A DNA stretch of 64,000 bases from Escherichia coli. Its GTDB lineage: Bacteria > Pseudomonadota > Gammaproteobacteria > Enterobacterales > Enterobacteriaceae. The notes beneath the pieces are model-generated. The model worked only from the letters and a program-made list of their open reading frames with translations, did no database searches and was not told the DNA's origin. The position numbers and the translations under genes are program-made. Shown here in pieces: positions 5,423-64,000 of the stretch. The stretch lies in NCBI RefSeq assembly GCF_003018255.1, contig NZ_CP027440.1; one strand, given 5' to 3'. How positions within the stretch are numbered: position 1 is the stretch's first letter; the number at the start of each line of letters is the position of its first letter.

Positions 5423-6703
5423 ATGACCGAACATACCAGCAGTTACTACGCCGCCAGTGCGAATAAATACGCGCCATTCGACACGCTGAATGAGTCGATT
5501 TCCTGCGACGTTTGCGTGGTCGGTGGCGGCTATACCGGGCTGTCTTCCGCGCTGCATCTGGCGGAAGCGGGCTTTGACGTGGTGGTTCTTGAAGCCTCAC
5601 GCATCGGCTTCGGCGCAAGCGGACGCAACGGCGGGCAGCTTGTGAACTCCTACAGCCGCGACATCGACGTCATTGAAAAAAGCTACGGCATGGACACCGC
5701 CCGTATGCTCGGCAGCATGATGTTCGAAGGCGGCGAGATCATCCGCGAACGTATCAAACGTTATCAGATTGACTGCGACTACCGCCCCGGCGGCCTGTTT
5801 GTGGCGATGAATGATAAACAGCTCGCGACTCTGGAAGAGCAGAAAGAGAACTGGGAACGCTACGGCAATAAACAGCTGGAGCTGCTGGACGCCAACGCTA
5901 TTCGCCGCGAGGTCGCCAGCGATCGCTACACTGGTGCGCTTCTGGATCACAGCGGTGGGCATATTCATCCGCTAAACCTCGCCATTGGCGAAGCGGACGC
6001 CATCCGCCTGAACGGAGGGCGCGTGTATGAGCTTTCTGCCGTGACGCAGATCCAGCACACCACGCCAGCCGTGGTGCGGACTGCCAATGGTCAGGTGACG
6101 GCGAAGTATGTGATTGTCGCCGGGAATGCGTATCTGGGCGATAAAGTAGAGCCGGAACTAGCGAAACGCAGCATGCCGTGCGGCACGCAGGTGATCACCA
6201 CCGAGCGGCTGTCGGAAGATTTAGCTCGTTCGCTGATCCCGAAAAACTACTGTGTGGAAGACTGTAACTATCTTCTTGATTACTACCGTCTTACCGCCGA
6301 TAACCGCCTGTTGTACGGCGGCGGCGTGGTCTACGGCGCACGCGACCCGGACGATGTTGAGCGCCTTGTGGTGCCGAAACTGCTGAAAACCTTCCCGCAA
6401 CTGAAGGGCGTGAAAATTGATTACCGCTGGACGGGCAACTTCCTGCTGACCCTGTCACGCATGCCGCAGTTTGGTCGCCTCGATACCAACATCTACTACA
6501 TACAGGGCTACAGCGGCCACGGCGTCACCTGTACCCACCTCGCCGGGCGTTTGATTGCTGAACTGCTGCGCGGTGACGCCGAGCGTTTCGACGCCTTCGC
6601 CAATCTGCCGCATTACCCGTTCCCCGGCGGGCGCACGCTGCGCGTTCCGTTTACCGCGATGGGCGCGGCTTATTACAGCCTGCGCGATCGTCTGGGCGTT
6701 TAA
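5423..6703 (+). CDS. puuB: Gamma-glutamylputrescine oxidoreductase (FAD-dependent)
   Basis: 426-aa ORF with N-terminal FAD-binding GxGxxG (VCVVGGGYTGLSSAL); starts 1 bp after the puuC stop. Confidence 0.9.
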   Translation: MTEHTSSYYAASANKYAPFDTLNESISCDVCVVGGGYTGLSSALHLAEAGFDVVVLEASRIGFGASGRNGGQLVNSYSRDIDVIEKSYGMDTARMLGSMMFEGGEIIRERIKRYQIDCDYRPGGLFVAMNDKQLATLEEQKENWERYGNKQLELLDANAIRREVASDRYTGALLDHSGGHIHPLNLAIGEADAIRLNGGRVYELSAVTQIQHTTPAVVRTANGQVTAKYVIVAGNAYLGDKVEPELAKRSMPCGTQVITTERLSEDLARSLIPKNYCVEDCNYLLDYYRLTADNRLLYGGGVVYGARDPDDVERLVVPKLLKTFPQLKGVKIDYRWTGNFLLTLSRMPQFGRLDTNIYYIQGYSGHGVTCTHLAGRLIAELLRGDAERFDAFANLPHYPFPGGRTLRVPFTAMGAAYYSLRDRLGV

Positions 6704-6740: not shown

Positions 6741-8006
6741 ATGAGCAACAATGAATTCCATCAGCGTCGTCTTTCTGCTACCCCACGCGGGGTTGGCGTG
6801 ATGTGTAACTTCTTCGCCCAGTCGGCAGAAAACGCCACGCTGAAGGATGTAGAGGGCAACGAATATATCGATTTCGCCGCAGGCATTGCGGTACTGAATA
6901 CCGGGCATCGCCACCCTGATCTGGTCGCGGCGGTGGAACAGCAATTGCAACAGTTTACCCACACGGCGTATCAGATTGTGCCGTACGAAAGCTACGTCAC
7001 GCTGGCGGAGAAAATTAACGCCCTTGCCCCGGTGAGCGGGCAGGCTAAAACTGCGTTCTTCACCACCGGTGCGGAAGCGGTGGAGAACGCGGTGAAAATC
7101 GCCCGCGCCCATACCGGACGCCCTGGCGTGATTGCGTTTAGCGGCGGCTTCCACGGTCGTACATATATGACCATGGCGCTGACCGGAAAGGTCGCGCCGT
7201 ACAAAATCGGCTTCGGCCCGTTCCCCGGTTCGGTATATCACGTACCTTATCCGTCAGATTTACACGGCATTTCAACGCAGGACTCCCTCGACGCCATCGA
7301 ACGCTTGTTTAAATCGGACATTGAAGCGAAGCAGGTGGCGGCGATTATTTTCGAACCGGTTCAGGGCGAAGGCGGTTTCAACGTTGCGCCAAAAGAGCTG
7401 GTTGCCGCCATTCGCCGCCTGTGCGACGAGCACGGCATTGTGATGATTGCCGATGAAGTGCAAAGCGGCTTTGCGCGTACCGGTAAAATGTTTGCCATGG
7501 ATCACTACGCCGATAAGCCGGACTTAATGACGATGGCGAAAAGCCTCGCAGGCGGGATGCCGCTTTCGGGCGTGGTCGGTAACGCGAATATTATGGACGC
7601 GCCCGCGCCGGGCGGGTTGGGTGGTACCTACGCCGGGAACCCGCTGGCGGTGGCTGCCGCGCACGCTGTGCTCAACATTATCGACAAAGAATCACTCTGT
7701 GAACGCGCGAATCAACTGGGCCAGCGCCTGACAAACACGTTGATTGATGCCAAAGAAAGCGTTCCGGCCATCGCGGCGGTACGCGGTCTGGGGTCTATGA
7801 TTGCGGCAGAGTTTAACGATCCGCAAACGGGCGAGCCGTCAGCGGCGATTGCACAGAAAATCCAGCAACGCGCGCTGGCGCAGGGGCTGCTTCTGCTGAC
7901 CTGTGGCGCATACGGCAACGTGATTCGTTTCCTGTATCCGCTGACCATCCCGGATGCGCAATTCGATGCGGCAATGAAAATTTTGCAGGATGCGCTGAAC
8001 GATTAA
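6741..8006 (+). CDS. puuE: 4-aminobutyrate aminotransferase (PLP-dependent class III aminotransferase)
   Basis: 421-aa ORF; class III aminotransferase features; synteny. Confidence 0.9.
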   Translation: MSNNEFHQRRLSATPRGVGVMCNFFAQSAENATLKDVEGNEYIDFAAGIAVLNTGHRHPDLVAAVEQQLQQFTHTAYQIVPYESYVTLAEKINALAPVSGQAKTAFFTTGAEAVENAVKIARAHTGRPGVIAFSGGFHGRTYMTMALTGKVAPYKIGFGPFPGSVYHVPYPSDLHGISTQDSLDAIERLFKSDIEAKQVAAIIFEPVQGEGGFNVAPKELVAAIRRLCDEHGIVMIADEVQSGFARTGKMFAMDHYADKPDLMTMAKSLAGGMPLSGVVGNANIMDAPAPGGLGGTYAGNPLAVAAAHAVLNIIDKESLCERANQLGQRLTNTLIDAKESVPAIAAVRGLGSMIAAEFNDPQTGEPSAAIAQKIQQRALAQGLLLLTCGAYGNVIRFLYPLTIPDAQFDAAMKILQDALND

Positions 8007-41210: not shown

Positions 41211-41306
41211 ATAAAAAAATAGAGCCTGTCGACATCCGCCAGACTCTACAGTACACACAGCAGTGCATCCTCGTCTTAAATCCGGCCTGGGGTCCTGGTG
41301 ACCGGT
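41211..41306 (-). ncRNA. mcaS: McaS (IsrA) small regulatory RNA
   Basis: Minus-strand sequence ACCGGTCACCAGGACCCCAGGCCGGATTTAAGACGAGGATGCACTGCTGTGTGTACTGTAGAGTCTGGCGGATGTCGACAGGCTCTATTTTTTTAT matches recalled McaS, including GGA motifs and a terminator hairpin with U-tract. Confidence 0.8.
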
Positions 41307-48077: not shown

Positions 48078-48351
48078 CAAAAGCAATTTTCCCGGCTGTC
48101 TGTATACAAAAACGCCGCAAAGTTTGAGCGAAGTCAATAAACTCTCTACCCATTCAGGGCAATATCTCTCTTGCAGGTGAATGCAACGTCAAGCGATGGG
48201 CGTTGCGCTCCATATTGTCTTACTTCCTTTTTTGAATTACTGCATAGCACAATTGATTCGTACGACGCCGACTTTGATGAGTCGGCTTTTTTTTGCCTGT
48301 TATTTGTCAGCGTCTACCCTTTAAGAGTCCACCCAATGACCGGAGGGAAAT

Positions 48352-52595: not shown

Positions 52596-52856
52596 TCACG
52601 AGGACTGAAGTTTCTCGCAATTAAAATTTATCAGTTTTACTTTCTGCTCTCTGGAAACGCCTGCTTCTTTTTTACCTGAGAGCATTTTTTCGCATTCTGA
52701 TTTAGTTAGTTTATATTTTGAATATCTTGTCCAGTTAGTAGGAGTGCCACCTTCCTTTTCAATAGTGGCGGTAATTTTATACATGAACACCTCCATTATT
52801 ATTTCCAGTGGTTCGTTTATTCCATCTTTCGAGTGCTTCTTTTTCACTTCCACCAT
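52596..52856 (-). CDS. ydaC: Rac prophage protein YdaC-like (DUF1187); start codon uncertain
   Basis: ORF containing MYKITATIEKEGGTPTNWTRYSKYKLTKSECEKML; synteny with int/xis/lar. Confidence 0.6.
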   Translation of the reverse strand: MVEVKKKHSKDGINEPLEIIMEVFMYKITATIEKEGGTPTNWTRYSKYKLTKSECEKMLSGKKEAGVSREQKVKLINFNCEKLQSS

Positions 52857-52971: not shown

Positions 52972-53027
52972 AATTTTTCTCATAAAAAATATTTCAAGTT
53001 GGCGGTGCATTACACCGCCAGGCTGAA

Positions 53028-53843
<816 letters not shown>

Positions 53844-53909
53844 ATTTTATAACCCAGAACGGGCGTCAGAAATGACGCCTTTTTTATTGCAGAAAAGCGA
53901 GAGGTAATT

Positions 53910-54509
53910 ATGCGTAAACTTTATGCCGCCATTTTGTCCGCAGCCATTTGTCTGGCCGTATCCGGTGCGCCTGCATGGGCGTCTGAACATCAGTCCACGC
54001 TGAGCGCGGGGTATCTTCATGCCCGGACGAACGTTCCCGGCAGTGATGATCTGAACGGGATTAACGTGAAATACCGTTATGAGTTTACGGACACACTGGG
54101 GATGGTGACGTCATTCAGCTATGCAGGAGACAAGAATCGTCAGCTGACCCGTTACAGCGATACCCGCTGGCATGAAGATTCCGTTCGTAACCGCTGGTTC
54201 AGCGTAATGGCGGGGCCGTCTGTGCGCGTGAATGAATGGTTCAGCGCGTATGCGATGGCGGGTGTGGCTTACAGCCGTGTGTCGACTTTTTCCGGGGATT
54301 ATATCCGCGTAACTGACAATAAGGGGAAAACGCACGATGTGCTGACCGGAAGTGATGACGGTCGCCACAGCAACACGTCTCTGGCGTGGGGGGCTGGCGT
54401 GCAGTTTAACCCGACCGAATCCGTGGCCATTGATATTGCTTATGAAGGCTCCGGCAGTGGTGACTGGCGCACTGACGGTTTCATCGTGGGTGTCGGTTAT
54501 AAATTCTGA
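53910..54509 (+). CDS. lom: Lom-like outer membrane protein (Ail/Lom/OmpX beta-barrel family)
   Basis: 199-aa ORF with signal peptide (AICLAVSGAPAWA) and C-terminal ...VGVGYKF. Confidence 0.85.
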   Translation: MRKLYAAILSAAICLAVSGAPAWASEHQSTLSAGYLHARTNVPGSDDLNGINVKYRYEFTDTLGMVTSFSYAGDKNRQLTRYSDTRWHEDSVRNRWFSVMAGPSVRVNEWFSAYAMAGVAYSRVSTFSGDYIRVTDNKGKTHDVLTGSDDGRHSNTSLAWGAGVQFNPTESVAIDIAYEGSGSGDWRTDGFIVGVGYKF

Positions 54510-54528
54510 TTAGCCAGGTAACACAGTG

Positions 54529-54557
54529 TTATGACAGCCCGCCGGTTCAGGCGGGCT
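54529..54557 (+). terminator. Rho-independent terminator after lom
   Basis: Hairpin gcccgcc-ggttcag-gcgggc followed by tttttt. Confidence 0.7.
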
Positions 54558-54567
54558 TTTTTGTGGG

Positions 54568-57500
54568 GTGAATATGGCAGTAAAGATTTCAGGTGTACTG
54601 AAAGACGGTGCAGGTAAACCGGTACAGAACTGTACAATCCAGCTGAAAGCAAAACGTAACAGCACCACGGTGGTGGTGAACACGGTGGCCTCAGAAAATC
54701 CGGATGAAGCCGGGCGTTACAGCATGGACGTTGAGTACGGTCAGTACAGCGTTATTCTGTTGGTGGAAGGATTCCCGCCGTCACATGCCGGGACCATCAC
54801 CGTGTATGAAGATTCCCGACCCGGTACGCTGAATGATTTTCTCGGTGCCATGACGGAGGATGATGCCCGTCCGGAGGCTCTGCGCCGTTTTGAACTGATG
54901 GTGGAAGAGGTGGCGCGTAACGCGTCCGCGGTGGCACAGAACACGGCAGCCGCGAAGAAATCAGCCAGCGATGCCAGCACATCAGCCCGTGAGGCGGCAA
55001 CCCATGCGACTGATGCTGCAGATTCAGCACGTGCAGCCAGCACGTCAGCCGGACAGGCCGCTTCGTCGGCTCAGTCAGCGTCTTCCAGCGCAGGAACGGC
55101 ATCAACAAAGGCCACTGAAGCCTCAAAAAGTGCTGCCGCTGCAGAGTCCTCAAAAAGCGCGGCGGCTACCAGTGCCGGTGCGGCGAAAACGTCAGAAACG
55201 AATGCGGCAGCGTCACAACAATCAGCAGCCACTTCTGCATCCACCGCGACCACGAAAGCGTCAGAAGCTGCCACCTCAGCCCGGGATGCGTCGGCCTCAA
55301 AAGAGGCAGCGAAATCATCAGAAACGAACGCATCATCAAGTGCCAGTAGTGCAGCTTCCTCGGCAACGGCGGCAGGAAATTCCGCGAAGGCCGCAAAAAC
55401 GTCTGAGACGAATGCAGATAACAGCGCACAGGCGGCAGCAGACTCACAAACTGCATCAGCAAACTCCGCGACAGCAGCCAAAAAATCAGAAACCAACGCG
55501 AAAAATAGCGAGGCAGCAGCAAAGAGCAGCGAAACCAACGCTAAAGCCAGCGAAACTAATGCTAAATCCAGTGAAACAAACGCGGCGAAATCTGCGGCGG
55601 ACGCACTTAATTATCGCAACCAGGCGCAAGTAATTGTTGGCGATAATATCGGTCTTGGTGAAGTTGCCATGACCTGCACTGATATCTCTGTTGAGCCATC
55701 AGGTTATATTGGATTTGTCAGGATTTACATCTCAGCGAAAGGTTATCCATCAGTAGCGTCTAGTGCCGGTGATAATCTTATTTCTGGTTATATAGTTAGA
55801 TCAGAAGTGTCAACAAAAAGATATTCCGGTCTATTTGTTGGTTCAGATACAAAATCATTGTATTCGTACATTTACAGCCAAAGTTCTGGCCCGCAATGGA
55901 TACGTCATACCCGCAGAGATGAATTAAGCCGCTTTGGTCAAAATGAATCAACAACTCGTATGTATGGTCCAACTGGTGATCGTTTCTTTGAAATCCATAC
56001 TAACGGGAGTTGGGGAGTTTATGATTCTTCTTCTGGACAATGGTCTCCGTTAGGTTTAGCCCAGGGCGGTACTGGTGGAAGAACTATCGAGCAAGCACGT
56101 GCGAACTTGCGGGTAATGTATGAGCAAAAAGCTGGCCTTGCTAATACTGACCTAAACACCCTTACCGGTGAATATTCTGGTTTCTATCAACAACCAACGA
56201 GCGCTTACGCAACAGAAGAATTAAATTACCCAATCGGTCTGGCGGGCGCTTTAATAGTGCTCCAAACGAGAGCCAACACTGCTTCTTCCTGCGTTCAGGT
56301 GTACTACCCTTATAATAATCCGGGAATTACTTATAGACGAATATATGAAGGAGGAAGCGGTACCTGGTCTGAATGGAAGAGAGATGTATCAACAGAAAGG
56401 GTTGAAGAGGGAAAAGAAACAACTTACGTATATTCTACGTATTCTTCAGGCGCACCACGCTTACAGGTTTCCAAATCTGGTTTGTGGGGTTGTCATAATG
56501 GCACTGGCTGGTTGCCATTAGCTGTTGGGCAAGGAGGTACAGGTGCGACAACAGTAGAAGATGCGCGAAACAACTTAAGTCTTGGCGAAAGTAGCGCAGT
56601 TAAATTTAAAAACCTTACTTTAACCGAAGCGCTCGACACGACATTAGGACTGCTTACAAAAACAGGACGAGACTGGAACACGCAGCATACTGATAACATT
56701 AATAAATTTATACCAATTGCAGGCAGTACAAACGGCCCGGCAGGTTCTATGGTTCTTGGCGGCATTCATGTTCAATTTAGTAAAAATTATGCTGTGCAGT
56801 TCGGAGGCCGCAATTCCGGTTTTTGGGGAAGAACAATTGAAAATGGAACGACGCAGGAATGGAAGAAATTACTAACAGTAGACGATCTCAATTCATCTAC
56901 CGATCTTGCTGTCAGGTCATTAACCACATCTAACCCGGTAAAATCTGGCGGAGGGCGAATTGATGTCCTTGGAAGCACGTCAGACTATAGCAAAATGGAT
57001 TGCTTTGTACGTGGGTTTGATAGCACCGGTAATTCTCTCGCGTGGGCGTTGGGTTCATCAGTCGGCGTAAGTAAGATGCTGTCGCTAAAAAATTTCTTTA
57101 GCGGAGCTGAGATACTGTTAAATGGTAATGACGGCGCGGTTCAACTCAAAACAGGTGCTGTTAACGGGGCTAAAGCGCAGGCGCTCACTATCAACAAGGA
57201 TGAGGTTAACTCAACTGTTGATTTAACTCTTACAAAACAAACAGGGACTGGAAATCGTTTTGTTTTACAGAACTTAGGTAATACAGAACTATCATTTGCC
57301 GCAAAAGTATGGGGATCAAGTGATCGACAAAACGTTTTTGAGGTTGGAACGTCTGCTGCGTATCTGTTTTATGCGCAAAAAACGTCAGCAGGCCAGTTGT
57401 TTGATGTAAATGGCGCTATTAATTGCACAACGCTGAATCAGTCATCAGACCGCGACCTTAAAGACGATATTCTCGTTATCAGCGACGCGACGAAAGCAAT

Positions 57501-57879
57501 CCGTAAAATGAACGGATACACCTACACGCTCAGGGAAAACGGGATGCCTTATGCTGGCGTTATTGCACAGGAAGTAATGGAGGCGATACCAGAAGCTGTG
57601 GGATCGTTTACTCATTACGGTGAAGAGTTGCAGGGACCAACGGTTGACGGCAATGAATTACGTGAAGAAACACGTTATCTGAATGTTGACTACGCCGCCG
57701 TGACGGGGTTACTTGTTCAGGTCGCCCGTGAAACAGATGGTCGCGTTACCGCGCTGGAAGAGGAAAACATAACGCTACGTAAAAATCTGGCAACAGCAGG
57801 CACCCGGATCAGCACTCTGGAAAATCAGGTAAGCGAACTGGTTGCACTTGTCGGGCAGTTAACAGGAAGCGAACATTGA
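54568..57879 (+). CDS. stf: Side tail fiber protein (lambda Stf-like N-terminus, Ala/Ser/Thr-rich repeat shaft, C-terminal intramolecular-chaperone/S74-like domain)
   Basis: 1103-aa ORF; N-terminus MAVKISGVLKDGAGKPVQNCTIQLKAK...; SETNA-type repeats across 55050-55620; C-terminus SSDRDLKDDILVISDATKAIRKMNGYTY plus coiled coil. Confidence 0.85.
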   Translation: MNMAVKISGVLKDGAGKPVQNCTIQLKAKRNSTTVVVNTVASENPDEAGRYSMDVEYGQYSVILLVEGFPPSHAGTITVYEDSRPGTLNDFLGAMTEDDARPEALRRFELMVEEVARNASAVAQNTAAAKKSASDASTSAREAATHATDAADSARAASTSAGQAASSAQSASSSAGTASTKATEASKSAAAAESSKSAAATSAGAAKTSETNAAASQQSAATSASTATTKASEAATSARDASASKEAAKSSETNASSSASSAASSATAAGNSAKAAKTSETNADNSAQAAADSQTASANSATAAKKSETNAKNSEAAAKSSETNAKASETNAKSSETNAAKSAADALNYRNQAQVIVGDNIGLGEVAMTCTDISVEPSGYIGFVRIYISAKGYPSVASSAGDNLISGYIVRSEVSTKRYSGLFVGSDTKSLYSYIYSQSSGPQWIRHTRRDELSRFGQNESTTRMYGPTGDRFFEIHTNGSWGVYDSSSGQWSPLGLAQGGTGGRTIEQARANLRVMYEQKAGLANTDLNTLTGEYSGFYQQPTSAYATEELNYPIGLAGALIVLQTRANTASSCVQVYYPYNNPGITYRRIYEGGSGTWSEWKRDVSTERVEEGKETTYVYSTYSSGAPRLQVSKSGLWGCHNGTGWLPLAVGQGGTGATTVEDARNNLSLGESSAVKFKNLTLTEALDTTLGLLTKTGRDWNTQHTDNINKFIPIAGSTNGPAGSMVLGGIHVQFSKNYAVQFGGRNSGFWGRTIENGTTQEWKKLLTVDDLNSSTDLAVRSLTTSNPVKSGGGRIDVLGSTSDYSKMDCFVRGFDSTGNSLAWALGSSVGVSKMLSLKNFFSGAEILLNGNDGAVQLKTGAVNGAKAQALTINKDEVNSTVDLTLTKQTGTGNRFVLQNLGNTELSFAAKVWGSSDRQNVFEVGTSAAYLFYAQKTSAGQLFDVNGAINCTTLNQSSDRDLKDDILVISDATKAIRKMNGYTYTLRENGMPYAGVIAQEVMEAIPEAVGSFTHYGEELQGPTVDGNELREETRYLNVDYAAVTGLLVQVARETDGRVTALEEENITLRKNLATAGTRISTLENQVSELVALVGQLTGSEH

Positions 57880-57930
57880 TATCCTTCAAGCCCTGAAGGA
57901 GGCTGTTCCTGGTACGTTCAGACTGTTGTT

Positions 57931-58086
57931 GAGCTGGAAATCGCAACGGAGGAAGAAACTTCGTTGCTGGAAGTCTGGAAAAAGTATCGGGTGTTGCTGA
58001 ACCGTGTTGATACATCAACTGCACCTGATGTTGATTGGCCAGCAGCACCGAAGTGTAATTCATTAGAACTCATCACCTGTGAATAA
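57931..58086 (+). pseudogene. tfa: tfa (tail fiber assembly protein) 3' remnant, copy 1
   Basis: Frame 57883-58086 translates ...[50 protein letters not shown], matching the last about 40 aa of lambda Tfa; no N-terminal part. Confidence 0.6.
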
Positions 58087-58689
58087 TATCTGTTTTTGAG
58101 TAAGTTAGTAATAATCACTTAAATGTGTTATGAGTTTGTTGAGGCGTGATTTGCAATAGGATAGAGAGTACGATTATGGATTGAGAATAAGAAAGCGCCA
58201 TGAAAGAGTTTCATGGCGAGTACATAAACGTACAAAATATGATGAAAGTAGAGTGGCATAAGCCACTATGTTAACTTATAGCAATAGGGAAGATAAGTAA
58301 ATAATATTTCTTGAGTATAGTGTAAGTCGTTCATTGTAAAGCGTTAATGTTATCTATATTGTTTATCTTAAAATAAGGTGTATAAACCAAACTTTTGAGC
58401 TAAAAGTTTAAAGAGTATTAGTGCAAAAATAATGTTTAATAAGATAATCAATTTGCTTTGTATCTTCATTTCGAAAGATTGCTAAGTAACGTTAATTACC
58501 AAAACGATAGATCAGAATTATCTTAGAGTCAATGACTTTAGGTTTGTTTATAATGTAAATATTTTCTATTTGTTATAAGTTTTCTTAATATAGTCACCCA
58601 TGCAACTTGTTCCGTGTGGAGATTAAAGGTTAAAATTTAATGCGAAGATGGAATTATATTATATTTGTTATAATTAATTTAACCTTAAC

Positions 58690-58785
58690 ATCGTTGCTGG
58701 CGGCATGGAAGAAATATCGGGTCTTGCTGATGTCGTGTTGGCACTTCCTTAGTGCCGGATATCGAGTGGCCAGCTGCACCTATAG
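58690..58785 (+). pseudogene. tfa: tfa 3' remnant, copy 2 (frameshifted)
   Basis: [13 protein letters not shown] and, in another frame, PDIEWPAAP; diverged paralog of the 57931-58086 fragment. Confidence 0.5.
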
Positions 58786-58987
58786 GGTAAAAATATAGTT
58801 CTATATGGGAGCGCTATTTTTACAATATAAATGCTGAACGGAAGAATCTAACCAGTTACAAAAAACATAGTTATGTAATCCAGTTGCCTGGGCATGCGTG
58901 TGATGTTGATAGCTATTACTGTATCTTCCGTTCACTTACCTTATTGTGAACAGTTATATATAATTTGATCTGCTCTTATTCAGCCTG

Positions 58988-60190
58988 CTAGGCTGCTGTA
59001 AATCTTCGATACTTTCTTAACATAAAGATCATGATTAGAATAATTGAAAGTAAGTAAACAATCCAAATGGTGATATTTCGTTCAATTAAAAAGCTACCAA
59101 TTCCGCCGATCACTGAAGGAATCACCAGAGAAGCGGCCCCCATTAACGCAGATGTGGCACCCAGACTGGTACGTTGGCTGGACATAGTTAGGTAAGTATA
59201 AAGTGATTCGAACATACCTCCGGCAAACATCAAAACAATGAAGAATAATATAAAAACATTGACATGATGAACGAATATTATTAGCGGAGTGCACAATACG
59301 ATAAATGAAGCAATGAGCTTCAGCCATAAACTCAAAATTTGTGGTGCAGACCGCTTCTTAAGTAGTTTACCTGATAGTGCTGCTCCCAGCAGAAGGAATC
59401 CTCCAATAATTGATGAGATAACACCAAATTGCGTAGATGAGTATCCATACTTAACCATCAAAATAAATGGGGAAGCTGTGACATAACAATAAATTAGAGA
59501 GAATGAAAGTCCAAGAGAAAGGCAAGGTAGATAAAATCTTGGTTGCTTACTTATCTCTTTGTACGTAAGAAATGATGATTTTAGTGAATATGTAATCCGT
59601 TTTTTATGACTGAGTGTTTCAGGGAAGTTAAAATAGACATACGTTAATGTTACAACAGAATATCCTAATATCATTAGAAAAATTGCACGCCATCCCCATA
59701 CATCATTAATTATTCCTCCCAGCAGTGGAGAAGCAATAGGCACGACACCTTCAATAGTTATGATAATAGCGTACAGTGTAGCAGCCACTGAACCGCGTGT
59801 TACATCACGAACGGCACTAATTGCTGTAACCAGAGTTATTGATATAGAAAGCCCCTGTATGATGCGTATTGTAAGAAACGTACCCAATCCGGTCGAGAGT
59901 GTGAGGCAATATGTTGTCACACAATAAATAATAGCACCTGAAAGCATAATTCTTCGACGACCAATAGAATCAGATAATGGGCCAAAAATTAGCTGTCCAA
60001 AACCTATACAAAGGGTATAAACCATGATAGACAATTGCATGGACGGGATGTTTTGTCTAAATTCTTTTGCGATGTCAGGAATTGAAGGCAAATAAGTGTC
60101 CACACCTAGAATGCCCATAATAGTCAGCAGCGATAGGCCAATAGTAAAGAAAAGTATATTCTTTCTGTGAATAACAACTTGTGATTTCAT
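58988..60190 (-). CDS. MFS transporter, 12-TMS DHA1-like (Bcr/CflA-type) exporter; AT-rich
   Basis: 400-aa polytopic ORF with MFS motif region (GPLSDSIGRRRIMLSG); strongly AT-rich codon usage relative to the core genes. Confidence 0.75.
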   Translation of the reverse strand: MKSQVVIHRKNILFFTIGLSLLTIMGILGVDTYLPSIPDIAKEFRQNIPSMQLSIMVYTLCIGFGQLIFGPLSDSIGRRRIMLSGAIIYCVTTYCLTLSTGLGTFLTIRIIQGLSISITLVTAISAVRDVTRGSVAATLYAIIITIEGVVPIASPLLGGIINDVWGWRAIFLMILGYSVVTLTYVYFNFPETLSHKKRITYSLKSSFLTYKEISKQPRFYLPCLSLGLSFSLIYCYVTASPFILMVKYGYSSTQFGVISSIIGGFLLLGAALSGKLLKKRSAPQILSLWLKLIASFIVLCTPLIIFVHHVNVFILFFIVLMFAGGMFESLYTYLTMSSQRTSLGATSALMGAASLVIPSVIGGIGSFLIERNITIWIVYLLSIILIMIFMLRKYRRFTAA

Positions 60191-60952
60191 TATTTATCAC
60201 CATGAATAAATTAAAAGAATGAAAAAAACTCCATTTAAATGGAAGGAGGTGGATAATTATCGTGTAGGCAATACAACAGAGTTGAAAAGAACTGTCAAAC
60301 TTTTAACTCAAAAAAGTGAGATGTGAATCACAGACATAAAAATCATCTTTTTCAGCCCTATGGTTCAGTTAAATTTGATTGTTATCGTACGAAGGTTTGA
60401 ACGTGTGTGTGCGTATGCGGTATTTTTTCTTGCGAGTGCCGGAGTTATGAGAGCGTTGTATTAACCTTCATAATCTGACCTATTCAATTGATTCCAGTAC
60501 ACCAATGGGTATTTTGGTGTTATGGTATGTGACTCCAAATAAAATGGAGCGTGAACTGATAGTTGTGCGAACAAAAGTCGGACTAGAAACCGCTCGGGTA
60601 CAGTGGCGAATTGGAGTTGGCGACCCAAACTGACCTAGGAACAATCGTTGCAGATCGGACGATTAATTTCATCAGAAATTCCTCGCTAAAAGGTGGCTAT
60701 CACTGTGATGTTAACGTATCTAATTTGTACAAGAAATTTCTGCGGGGGAAAATGAAACCGCAGACTCGTTGTATGCAAAAACGTGCTGCGGCTAACTGGT
60801 GAACTTTCGATAGTGCGGGTATTGAATGATTTCTAGGCGTTATCGATTTTACGTATTTTTTGCATGATAGAATTCGTACCTCCTCCCAACGACCTTCCAT
60901 GGCTTTCCGGACTTCTGTAGGCCGGCGGACGATGCTGTCCTCGGATGTTGTG

Positions 60953-61810
60953 CTAATTGGGTGATAACAGATCCTGTGTATGGGAGTTTCCCTTTGTGCG
61001 TGCGTTGATGCTGGTAACGGTAAACGTCATGATGAACACGACCGCGAATAAGACGACAATCGTCGGAGCTGGTGCGCTGTCGATAAAAAAGGACAACCAG
61101 ACACCAGTCATTGACACTATTACCGATATGCCAGTCGCCAGTAGGAGCGCAATATGAAAGCGTTGTGTCAGGAGTACCGCAATGGCGCCAGGCGCTATGA
61201 GCAGAGAAATGGAGAGAATGATACCTACCGCTTTCAGCGTCGCCACAATGGTCAGAGAGACCATGCACAGCAGCCCATAATGCAGCCATCTCGTATGCAA
61301 ACCGCTTACCTGCGCCTGTTGATAATCAAAGCTGAACAGCAAAAAATCCCGCCATTTTACGCTAATAACAAGTGTAACCAGCCCGGCAATAATCATCGTC
61401 TGGATTATATCGCCGATGGTTATCCCGAGCATGTCGCCGAAAAGAATATGGTCAAGATGTACGTCTGGTTTGACTGCAATATACAAGATCAGACCTGCGG
61501 CAAACATGCCAGAAAAAACAATCCCCATCACTGTATCTTGCTTGATTCGGCTGTTGTCTTTCAGGTATCCCGTCGCCACCGCGCAGAATACTCCGGCGAC
61601 GAATGCCCCTGTAGCTAAAGGTAACCCCAGAATCCAGGCAAGCACGATGCCAGGAAAAACTGCATGACTCATCGCGTCACCCATCAGTGCCCAACCTTTC
61701 AGGACCAGAAAGACCGACAGCAGCGCACAGGGTATGGAAACTACCAGTGAAATCAGCAGTGCGTGACTCATAAAGGTGAACTGCAGTGGCTCCAGTAATA
61801 ATGCCATCAT
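60953..61810 (-). CDS. sitD: Mn/Fe ABC transporter permease SitD
   Basis: 285-aa polytopic ORF, last gene of the sit operon. Confidence 0.85.
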   Translation of the reverse strand: MMALLLEPLQFTFMSHALLISLVVSIPCALLSVFLVLKGWALMGDAMSHAVFPGIVLAWILGLPLATGAFVAGVFCAVATGYLKDNSRIKQDTVMGIVFSGMFAAGLILYIAVKPDVHLDHILFGDMLGITIGDIIQTMIIAGLVTLVISVKWRDFLLFSFDYQQAQVSGLHTRWLHYGLLCMVSLTIVATLKAVGIILSISLLIAPGAIAVLLTQRFHIALLLATGISVIVSMTGVWLSFFIDSAPAPTIVVLFAVVFIMTFTVTSINARTKGNSHTQDLLSPN

Positions 61811-62664
61811 GAGCGATCCTCCAGCGCCTTATGCGCACGCCGACGATTTGCCAAAAGCCCATGGGTGGGCGCAAAGACAAATGCTAAAAGAAACAGCAGT
61901 GTCTGCGCCACCACGATGATTCCACCTGTCGCGCCGTCCAGAAAGTAACTGACCCACGAGCCGAGGAAACTGGTTACACTGCCAATAGTTACAGCAATCA
62001 TGAGCAGGCGGGGAAAACGATCGGTTAACAACCATGCTGTTGCACCGGGAGTCACCACCAGACAGATCACCAGAAAGGCACCAACCGTTTGCAGCGCCGC
62101 AACGGTCGAAACCGACAGCAGGGTGAAGAAGAGGAGTTTTAATCTGCCCGGATGCAATCCAATAGCACGGGCGTGATTCTCGTCGAAAAAGGTCACCATA
62201 AGATCTTTCCATTTGAAAAAAAGCACGATGATCGAGAGAATGCCAATGATAGTGAGTTGCAGGATATCCGCCGGATCGATTGCCAGAATATTGCCCAGGA
62301 CGATGGTCTGAATGTTCACAGATGTCGGGTTCAATGACACCATAAACAGCCCCAGGCCAAAAAAGGATGAGAAGATCAGGCCGATGATGGCATCTTCTTT
62401 TAAGCGGGTGCGTTGGTTAAGAAACAGCATGCTGCCCGCAGCCAGTCCGCCGGAAAAGAAGGCTCCCAGAGAAAACGGAAGCCCCAGCATATATGCTCCC
62501 GCAACACCCGGGACAATAGAGTGCGACAACGCATCGCCAATCAGCGACCAGCCTTTTAGCATCAGATAGCATGACAGGAAAGCGCAGAGACCGCCGACCA
62601 TCGCCGAGACCCACATCGCATTGAGCATATATTCATAGCTGAAGGGTTCCAGTAGCACGTTCAT
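61807..62664 (-). CDS. sitC: Mn/Fe ABC transporter permease SitC
   Basis: 285-aa polytopic ORF overlapping sitD by 4 nt. Confidence 0.85.
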
Positions 62665-63488
62665 CTTTCTTCCCTCTGCACCGCTGACGGTCGATGAGCC
62701 ACAAAAGGGCGTTCATCGTCAGTAATAATGCTTTCTTCCGAGCCGTTAAGTGTGACATGGCGCAGTACGCCGCTAAAAGCCAGCTCCAGGTTCTCGGCTG
62801 TAAAAGTGGTGTCTGTCGGCCCGCTTGCCAGGACGGTGCCTTTGACCATGACCGTATAATCGCAAAATGTCGTGACGGATCCGAGATTGTGTGTTGAGAC
62901 AAGCATCGTTTTGCCTTCCGCGCGTAACTCCCTCAACAGGCTGATGATTTTGGCTTCGGTTTTCACATCAACGCCAGTAAAAGGTTCATCCAGCAGGATC
63001 ACATCACCCTGCTGTGCAATCGCTCTCGCCAGAAAGACGCGTTTCTTTTGTCCACCGGAAAGCTCGCCGATTTGTCGATGGCGAAAATTCACCATATCGA
63101 CACGTTCCAGCGCATCGGTGACAATTTGACGATCCCTCTTTTTGGCGATACGCAACATACCCATATGCCCATAGCGGCCCATCATCACCACATCTTCCAC
63201 CAGTACAGGAAATGACCAGTCAACCTCTTCTGACTGAGGGACGTAGGCAACCAGGTTTTTCTGTAACGCCTGTCGCGTGGGAATACCCAGAACAGATATC
63301 TTTCCGCTGGTCAGACGCACAAATCCCATAATCGCTTTAAACAACGTCGATTTTCCGGAACCGTTTACCCCAACCAGAGCGGCAATAGATCCACTTGGTA
63401 CTGTGAAGGATGCATCGCGCAGTGCTGTGTGCCCGTTACGCCAGGTGACAGTAACATCATTAACGACAATGCCTGCAGATTGCATCAT
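62661..63488 (-). CDS. sitB: Mn/Fe ABC transporter ATP-binding protein SitB
   Basis: 275-aa ORF with Walker [10 protein letters not shown], signature LSGGQKKRV, Walker [12 protein letters not shown]. Confidence 0.88.
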
Positions 63489-64000
63489 TATTTCTCCCTT
63501 TTCCCGGCTTTAATTCCCTGTACCAGCGTACTGGTAGTAACCTTAAGAAGGTCGATATACGTCGGTACCGGGCCGTTTTCTGTGCTCAGGGAATCGACAT
63601 AGAGCACACCGCCGTAGTGTGCGCCGGTTTCACGCGCAACCTGACGCGCTGGTTTATCGGAAATCGTACTCTCGCTAAAGACTGCCGGGATATGATTTTT
63701 CTTAACTATATCAACAACCTTACGTACCTGTTGCGGTGTTCCTTGTTGATCGGCATTAATCGGCCACAGATAAAGCTCTTTTAGCCCCAAATCGCGTGCG
63801 AGATAAGAAAAAGCCCCTTCACTGGTGACCATCCACCGCTGATTCTCAGGGAGTTCCGTAATCTGCTTACGCAGGGGGGCAAGGGTTTGGGTAATCTTGG
63901 CTTTATAAGTATCGGCATTACGTTGGTAGGTTTGTGCATTAGCGGGATCGTATTTTATCAACGCATCACGAATATTATCGACGTAAATCAGAGCATTATC
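63488..64000 (-). CDS. sitA: Mn/Fe ABC transporter periplasmic binding protein SitA, C-terminal part only; 5' end beyond the window end
   Basis: Minus-strand frame open to the window edge; cluster A-I SBP sequence; stop overlaps the sitB ATG (ATGA). Confidence 0.8.

Follow-up and report, generated by a model that had tools for sequence, protein, structure and literature searches.

In the DLP12 prophage of Escherichia coli K-12, two directly repeated ends of the phage gene tfa, those of tfaD and tfaX (85% identical over 157 bp), flank cargo on the minus strand, and the downstream tfaX is no more than a short remnant whose tfa-homologous part is interrupted by an in-frame stop. A similar arrangement, with a likewise decayed downstream copy, is found in the E. 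coli DNA analysed here, a 64,000-nt stretch of contig NZ_CP027440.1 (assembly GCF_003018255.1) that we call the window and to whose first letter all positions refer. Here, two tfa 3' remnants (fragments 1 and 2) follow the side tail fibre gene stf of a Rac-site lambdoid prophage and flank an AT-rich spacer. The DLP12 array is followed by an AraC-family regulator gene (appY), as are the corresponding regions of phages ev099 and mEp332 and of L007, one of the comparison loci retrieved for this work (L001-L007, L030, L031 and L033). DLP12 differs in its cargo, which is ybcY, a 655-bp methyltransferase pseudogene, and in its upstream copy, tfaD, which is nearly full length.

Three other described systems resemble parts of the locus. 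YncL of K-12 (b4598, family NF000537) is a stress-induced membrane peptide that on overproduction causes membrane depolarisation and nucleoid condensation (PMC12542507). The spacer holds an open reading frame (ORF) whose 33-aa product shares with the 31-aa YncL a single hydrophobic helix and the motifs M-x-[IV]-x-S-[KR] and [KR]-F-G. However, yncL lies between patD and ortT and has a Shine-Dalgarno (SD) sequence, whereas the window gene lies in a prophage downstream of tfa and lacks one, and the DNA around the two genes is not similar. The spacer resembles lambdoid morons such as sitABCD, bor and lom in its deviating guanine-plus-cytosine (GC) content and its patchy presence in related phages, and it has a promoter-like site and a predicted terminator of its own. 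Most lambda morons are membrane proteins (PMC6969025), as is predicted for the spacer's peptide, but the spacer is much smaller than the described morons and has been missed by annotation pipelines. Finally, the invertible Pin, Gin and Cin segments of e14, Mu and P1 also lie next to fibre genes, also contain a duplicated tfa C-terminal motif, and find an echo in a pin remnant near the locus; they differ from the window, where the copies are direct and no crossover sites, alternative fibre tip or functional invertase were found.

We read the fragments as the scars of successive exchanges of tail-fibre modules and the spacer as a small accessory gene cassette, or moron, and put the probability of this reading at roughly 70%. 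In themselves, the tfa remnants are genuine but unremarkable traces of recombination, already annotated as pseudogenes. What is new is an unannotated small gene under strong purifying selection in ∼15% of complete E. coli genomes and in at least three viable lambdoid phages. With it YncL gains a mobile relative, and small-protein research gains a prophage candidate that adjoins the sit virulence cargo. The stacked, increasingly decayed tfa 3' ends would be a record of successive fibre-module swaps, and would mark the conserved tfa end as a joint for the exchange of host-range modules, including Tfa-independent S74 fibres, and of downstream cargo.

Both fragments are tfa 3' ends

The initial annotation had described two tfa 3' remnants with the conserved C-terminal Tfa motif, in direct orientation and the second frameshifted, and alignment shows each of these points to be right. 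Fragment 1 comprises in-frame codons at 57916-58083 and a stop at 58084-58086, and lacks the N-terminal three quarters of tfa. Against the intact Tfa of strain A21 (202 aa), it aligns with residues 147-202 at 91% identity (tblastn, E 2e-29), and against K-12 TfaR with residues 147-191 at 76% (E 2e-17). Fragment 2 covers approximately residues 161-193 of A21 Tfa; it is read in one frame at 58688-58729 (93% identity) and, after the shift, at 58734-58790, which encodes RVGTSLVPDIEWPAAPIG* (E 7e-6; 69% identity over 58734-58781). The conserved C-terminal motif is thus present in both, and both lack the complete frame of ∼190-200 aa with its N-terminal domain. The two are 73% identical to each other over 104 nt (E 5e-11), and a repeat search found them as direct repeats (82% over 44 nt and 70% over 47 nt) at a spacing of 730-731. 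In near-identical genomes, L001 among them, both are already annotated by the Prokaryotic Genome Annotation Pipeline (PGAP) as incomplete tfa pseudogenes.

Both fragments are also matched by the Rfam family IS009 (RF02111), at 91.7 bits (E 8e-21) for fragment 1 and 32 bits (E 6e-5) for fragment 2. The IS009 model is the last 199 nt of K-12 tfaD (227.8 bits within the tfaD coding sequence), and in K-12 DLP12 (L030) it falls at 5857-6055, in tfaD, and at 6899-7102, in tfaX, the latter below threshold. A published analysis places IS009 among RNAs that lie within genes (PMC5331693). The IS009 matches therefore restate the tfa homology and serve as a mark of tfa ends and remnants genome-wide. As a small RNA in its own right IS009 was rejected: the family corresponds to coding sequence at the 3' end of tfaD, and its matches in the window are below the gathering score.

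Copies of fragment 2 are found in Qin/ydfJ- and bio-site prophages (L003, L004 and L007), where they are 94-95% identical to that of the window and have largely the same indels; in a15, in F6326 and in some viral contigs the fragment is 1 nt shorter near the frameshift. It is absent from four other carriers of the spacer, the phages ev099 and mEp332 and the loci L005 and L006. Six loci have a third direct tfa end downstream (L003 7686-7757, L004 6331-6445 and L007 6331-6402 among them), which is more decayed still (AKEKGTTLLALWIKYRVLLNCVDT, then stops). Between copies 2 and 3 lies a minus-strand gene for a 65-aa hypothetical protein (e.g. WP_000348576.1); a search of the sequenced-phage collection with this second cassette, which follows fragment 2 in the other prophages, gave no match. 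The comparison shows that the decay of the tfa ends grows with distance from stf, as would fit a serial import of fibre-plus-cargo blocks that each ended in the resident tfa. On this reading, fragment 2 is the older scar and fragment 1 the younger. A plus-strand ORF of 52 aa at 58640-58798 is not conserved, having a 1-nt indel in other alleles, and was set aside.

A crossover inside the conserved tfa stretch

The stf gene immediately upstream has a phage_tail_N domain (aa 3-136, E 4.5e-72) and a C-terminal Peptidase_S74 domain (aa 960-1011, E 1.7e-11), and its N-terminal part is 96% identical to K-12 stfR. Peptidase_S74 is an intramolecular chaperone that makes a separate chaperone unnecessary. 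The junction between the S74 end and the tfa remnant (200 nt, 57760-57960) was found at ≥95% identity in 802 of 5426 complete E. coli genomes, the set to which all genome counts refer, with up to five copies in a genome. It is also present in the viable phages mEp460 (100% identical), Ayreon and PhiR70_1, and mEp460 has no tfa gene annotated after stf.

Strain A21 provides a counterpart with a different fibre. There, a different fibre C-terminus is followed by an intact 609-bp tfa, beyond which come the spacer, fragment 2, the MFS gene and the sit operon as in the window. A21 is 99.2% identical to the window from 57917 through the spacer and fragment 2 to the start of the MFS gene (the query ended at 59000), and its annotation has the MFS-sitDCBA gene order likewise beyond the equivalent of that position. 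Within fragment 1, the window is of the a15/L003 type on the left and of the A21 type on the right, which places a crossover inside the conserved tfa stretch. Among the loci compared, the S74 junction, the type of tfa tail, the allele of the spacer and its ORF, and the presence of fragment 2 assort independently. A 44-bp insertion at the end of tfa, specific to the window/A21 allele, replaces the ending ...APIG* with a different C-terminal tail. From these comparisons we conclude that fragment 1 represents the right-hand homology arm of a widespread and apparently Tfa-independent fibre cassette.

The stop codon of stf (TGA, 57877-57879) is in frame with the ORF of fragment 1, so that read-through would add 68 residues, and an SD-like GAAGGAGG at 57898-57905 has no start codon at a usable distance. 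Both features are probably coincidental.

The following history would account for the layout. The last 130-170 bp of tfa, which are conserved among lambdoid phages, would act as the right-hand joint for swaps of fibre modules. In an older event, stf and tfa would have been imported together with a cassette downstream of them, and the right end of this import would have fallen inside the resident tfa, leaving fragment 2, which then decayed and gained its frameshift. In a later event, an S74 fibre tip, which should not need Tfa, would have replaced the resident tip together with the first three quarters of tfa, leaving fragment 1; the crossover onto the present downstream DNA would have taken place inside the conserved stretch, at ∼57946-58005.

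The spacer is a widespread cassette

The spacer had initially been described as AT-rich and free of ORFs. Its composition was confirmed (GC 0.26-0.33, against ∼0.50 in stf), but it is not ORF-free, because a conserved minus-strand frame of 33 codons runs from 58469 to 58368. The 570-bp cassette that contains it is present in 828 of the 5426 genomes (∼15%), mostly at ∼80% identity, and the retrieved loci show it directly after tfa at four integration sites, Rac, Qin, bio and icd. Most of the other retrieved loci have the cassette directly after a tfa end, and about ten, from Qin/ydfJ and bio sites and from viral contigs, carry the second tfa remnant too. Among phages, it lies between a tfa end and an AraC-type regulator gene in ev099, mEp332 and PhiR70_1. 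The tfa end of PhiR70_1 is a truncated remnant that follows an S74 fibre, and in the ev099 record integrase and excisionase genes lie farther downstream of the regulator. The cassette is absent from mEp460 and from others among the lambdoid phages found.

A degenerate ORF pattern run against species-representative genomes returned a single contig, L033 (JAIJJM010000739.1), 1552 bp long and labelled as a Collinsella sp. metagenome-assembled genome. Its sequence matches the tfa/yncL-like cassette of E. coli at 95% identity, and the contig is most likely a mis-binned piece of E. coli prophage.

Several features suggest that the cassette is probably read from the minus strand. A sigma-70 promoter-like site (TTGACT-17-TATCGT) lies ∼30 nt upstream of the ORF, and the diverged allele L004 has TTGACT-17-TATTGT at the homologous place. 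Downstream of the ORF, a terminator hairpin at 58218-58196 with a U-rich tail was found in the window and in L004. Judged as a moron, the cassette thus has a predicted promoter and a predicted terminator at homologous positions in two alleles, and both the contrast in composition and the patchy presence in phages are observed. On the minus strand, the predicted order would be the promoter-like site, the 33-codon ORF, and a 3' untranslated region (UTR) of ∼180 nt with a hairpin block and the intrinsic terminator. Upstream of the gene, a 75-bp block (58586-58660) is near-invariant even in loci that lack fragment 2, and neither of its strands has an ORF that is conserved; regulatory DNA is one possibility, and another is that the block belongs to a longer 5' UTR whose start would be set by a TATAAT-like element near 58652-58657. 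A 37-aa hypothetical protein annotated in PhiR70_1 was also considered for the cassette and rejected, its frame not being conserved in the window.

A YncL-like small gene under purifying selection

The ORF is intact and of the same length in all 29 of the homologous loci that reach it. The window and the common allele differ at 19 nt of the ORF, 12 of these changes being synonymous and 7 non-synonymous, distributed over first, second and third codon positions as 7, 1 and 11. The proportions of synonymous and non-synonymous differences are pS = 0.61 and pN = 0.088, the rate ratio dN/dS is 0.075 (range 0.06-0.075), and the excess of synonymous changes has a binomial P of 4.6e-5. Indels between the alleles number five in the adjacent 92 nt and none in the ORF, and among 20,000 random-mutation trials not one kept the ORF with five or fewer amino-acid changes. 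As far as the aligned alleles can tell, this pattern shows purifying selection on the reading frame.

The only family match to the peptide was NCBIfam YncL (NF000537), at 23.5 and 25 bits (E 4e-5 and 1e-5), scores that are to be read against the curated cut-off of 35 bits for this equivalog model. In a BLASTP comparison with K-12 YncL, the alignment was ungapped over 30 residues, with 33% identity and 67% positives. By these comparisons the peptide is a distant relative or paralogue of YncL, not an orthologue. K-12 YnaM was considered as a relative and found to be unrelated. A PHROGs search with the peptide gave nothing significant, and a tblastn search of phages with it had no hits, which the low-complexity filter presumably explains. 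The peptide of the window allele had no exact match in a collection of 15 billion proteins, that of the common allele was present there as two unnamed entries, and a search of 1.84 billion representative proteins returned the peptide itself and one frameshifted variant only. The peptide string had no match in a full-text literature search, and the ORF is annotated in none of the genome and phage records examined, whether from PGAP, from RAST or in the phage entries. By analogy with YncL, the peptide would insert into the lysogen's inner membrane and there influence the membrane potential or the physiology of stress.

Weighing the readings

Several points weigh against serial exchange around a peptide-coding cassette. 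The family scores of the peptide are below the cut-off of the YncL hidden Markov model, the ORF has no SD sequence in either allele, and the selection test compares only two main alleles and rests on ∼20 synonymous sites. Fragment 2, a pseudogene, is as conserved between alleles (94-95%) as noted above, implying recent recombination in part of the cassette, so that identity cannot everywhere be read as selection. The presumed independence of S74 fibres from Tfa is taken from established knowledge of the domain and from the gene content of mEp460. Replacement and insertion predict an identical final layout and cannot be told apart by it; that the scars arose by replacement is what we infer. Lastly, the most conserved part of the cassette is not the ORF (81% identity between alleles) but the hairpin block downstream of it (93-94%), both of whose flanks are at 66-72%.

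This last point means that an RNA function may be primary. The corresponding reading, that the 85-nt block is a small RNA (sRNA) of the Hfq type derived from the 3' UTR and is the main product, with the ORF secondary or the transcript dual-function, is possible on the sequence data and is the strongest of the alternatives, though we give it clearly less credence than the reading of the spacer as a peptide-coding moron. Apart from its conservation, the block folds strongly (z-scores -7.3 and -6.1) and in the common allele ends in a canonical terminator with a AUUUUUUAUU tail; its single-stranded stretch is invariant in nine variants, and only on the minus-strand RNA are the three substitutions observed in the stems compatible with G-U pairing. 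The missing SD sequence would also suit an sRNA. Against it, no Rfam family matches the block, no double compensatory change was found in the stems among the variants compared, the dN/dS of 0.07 indicates that the ORF itself is constrained, and recent recombination could account for the high identity. Nor is the block PasB, a prophage sRNA of enteropathogenic E. coli whose flanks often contain IS009: the window has no match to the PasB northern probe with as many as three mismatches allowed, and the PasB sequence is unlike the conserved block.

Insertion of the cassette into the 3' end of tfa with target duplication, or a local tandem duplication, would produce the same final layout as serial replacement, and the cassettes found between tfa copies (yncL-like, 65-aa hypothetical and ybcY) are all on the minus strand, as inserted units could be. 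We nevertheless consider this origin unlikely. No mobile-element features were seen at the edges of the cassette, no mechanism is known that would duplicate a target of ∼100 bp at this place, and phages ev099 and mEp332 have the cassette without fragment 2. Moreover, decay rises with distance from stf, and copies 1 and 2 are only 73% alike.

A more far-reaching version of the serial-exchange reading would make the cassette a dual-function unit of lysogenic conversion, whose minus-strand transcript gives both a depolarising YncL-like peptide and an Hfq-type 3' RNA, and would see in decayed tfa 3' arrays a general, homology-driven way to stack and exchange cargo. We regard it as a long shot, slightly below the insertion model in plausibility.

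Somewhat less probable again is a type I toxin-antitoxin pair, in which the hydrophobic 33-aa peptide would be a membrane toxin silenced by an antisense RNA and would stabilise the prophage. The peptide is small, hydrophobic and single-pass, its relative YncL depolarises membranes when produced (PMC12542507), the predicted mRNA has long structured untranslated regions (z -3.4), the absent SD sequence would fit translational silencing, and the same prophage carries RalR/RalA. However, scans of the plus strand, too weak for a strong exclusion, found no conserved pair of promoter and terminator for an antisense RNA, and a terminator-like site on that strand at 58522-58542 is not kept in the common allele. 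Rfam gave no known toxin family, NCBIfam gave YncL only and PHROGs nothing significant, and YncL is not known as part of a toxin-antitoxin pair.

The initial annotation had offered two origins for the arrangement, a decayed invertible region and repeated recombination at the conserved tfa 3' sequence, and of these two the second is the best fit to the data. Under the first, the fragments would be the two alternative tfa genes of a G/C/P-like segment that has lost its invertase, and a decayed pin-family pseudogene does lie nearby; the prophage is at the Rac site, and in K-12 both Rac and e14 have pin adjoining tfa. The alternatives in e14, tfaP and tfaE, are mutually inverted. Those of Mu and P1 are likewise inverted relative to each other. 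In the window, both copies point the same way, a second fibre tip is missing and the region is not bounded by inverted repeats. A search of 53000-60400 detected no core resembling AAACCNNGGTTT, and a search with a gix consensus found no site at three mismatches or fewer. In BLAST comparisons with the K-12 Rac stfR-tfaR-pinR region and with e14 stfP/tfaP/tfaE/stfE/pinE, only the tfa 3' end was similar. The arrangement, sometimes with three direct copies, recurs in many loci without pin; no pin gene was found in the retrieved loci outside the window lineage. A decayed Pin/Gin-type segment is thus very improbable.

The pin remnant itself matches e14 PinE in two stretches, residues 70-142 at 55% identity and residues 140-166 at 67% (E 3e-19), whereas a tblastn search of the window with K-12 PinR gave no match. 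It sits between the MFS gene and sitD, 1.6 kb from the tfa repeats, from which the MFS gene parts it; it travels with the MFS segment, and no functional invertase is present there. It is not annotated in the near-identical genomes L001 and L002 and was seen only in window-type loci, with 35 of the 5426 genomes holding at least 80% of a wider query around it (60191-60952). By its similarity to PinE, the neighbouring cargo segment once carried an invertase, which is not what explains the tfa repeats.

Prophage setting and neighbouring genes

The features of the locus and its surroundings are collected in Table 1.

Table 1. Positions of the tfa fragments, the cassette and neighbouring features in the window
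Feature	Position	Strand	Basis
lom	53910-54509		
stf, side tail fibre gene, 1103 aa, self-chaperoning C-terminus	54568..57879	+	ORF, Pfam, BLAST
tfa fragment 1, last 56 codons in frame	57917..58086	+	Translation, tblastn, IS009 match
44-bp insertion at tfa end	58050..58093	.	Alignment of loci, allele table
Most conserved cassette block: 6-bp hairpin, AU-rich single strand, small hairpin, 10-bp GC-rich terminator (predicted)	58186..58270	-	Terminator scan, folding
Unannotated 33-codon ORF MKIQSKLIILLNIIFALILFKLLAQKFGLYTLF, YncL-like, predicted single-pass membrane peptide (helix by sequence inspection)	58368..58469	-	ORF list, conservation
Sigma-70 promoter-like site	58504..58532	-	Consensus scan
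Conserved 75-bp block upstream of small gene	58586..58660	.	Near-invariant in alignment of loci
tfa fragment 2, last ∼34 codons, +1 frameshift between 58729 and 58734	58688..58790	+	Translation, tblastn, IS009
Bcr/CflA-family MFS efflux transporter gene (cargo)	58988..60190	-	ORF; PGAP annotation in L001, L002
Degraded pseudogene of a Pin-family DNA invertase (∼residues 55-184), interrupted by several stops and one frameshift	60370..60745	+	tblastn with e14 PinE
sitD, sitC, sitB and part of sitA (iron/manganese transporter, lambdoid moron)	60953..63961	-	ORFs; L001 annotation

On comparison with K-12, the host element is a heavily deleted lambdoid prophage at the Rac site. The window is collinear with K-12 over zntB/FnrS, ttcA, intR, RalA/ralR and the start of recT, and collinearity resumes over lom, the N-terminal part of stf and the tfa 3' end. 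The order of the prophage genes is intR, ralR/RalA, recT', J', lom, stf, tfa', spacer, tfa'', MFS (minus strand) and sitDCBA (minus strand), and in near-identical genomes uspF comes next after sitDCBA. The deletion joint lies at 53028-53843, where the minus-strand remnant of recT (53028-53273) and a plus-strand remnant of the C-terminal part of J (53202-53843) overlap. This joint implies that the replication, lysis and head genes and most tail genes of the Rac-like prophage are gone, whilst intR, ralR/RalA, lom and stf have been kept.

Rfam matches above the gathering score were McaS (41211-41306, minus strand), FnrS (48173-48290, plus strand) and RalA (52600-52778, plus strand). All three are known genes unrelated to the tfa finding, and only RalA lies in the same prophage.

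The sitABCD operon is a known moron, carried by 70% of infant-gut lambda phages (PMC6969025). Positions 60755-60791, which lie between the pin remnant and sitD, match the right end of K-12 Rac (37 bp, 89%; L031 25729-25765, just inside attR), which suggests that the sit operon lies at or beyond an old right end of Rac. In strain A21, sitA is followed by an integrase fragment. At the icd site of strain R12 (L006, 5004-5785), sitD directly follows the yncL-like cassette, with neither tfa fragment 2 nor the MFS gene, and the sit cargo has thus been joined to the cassette at at least two different breakpoints.

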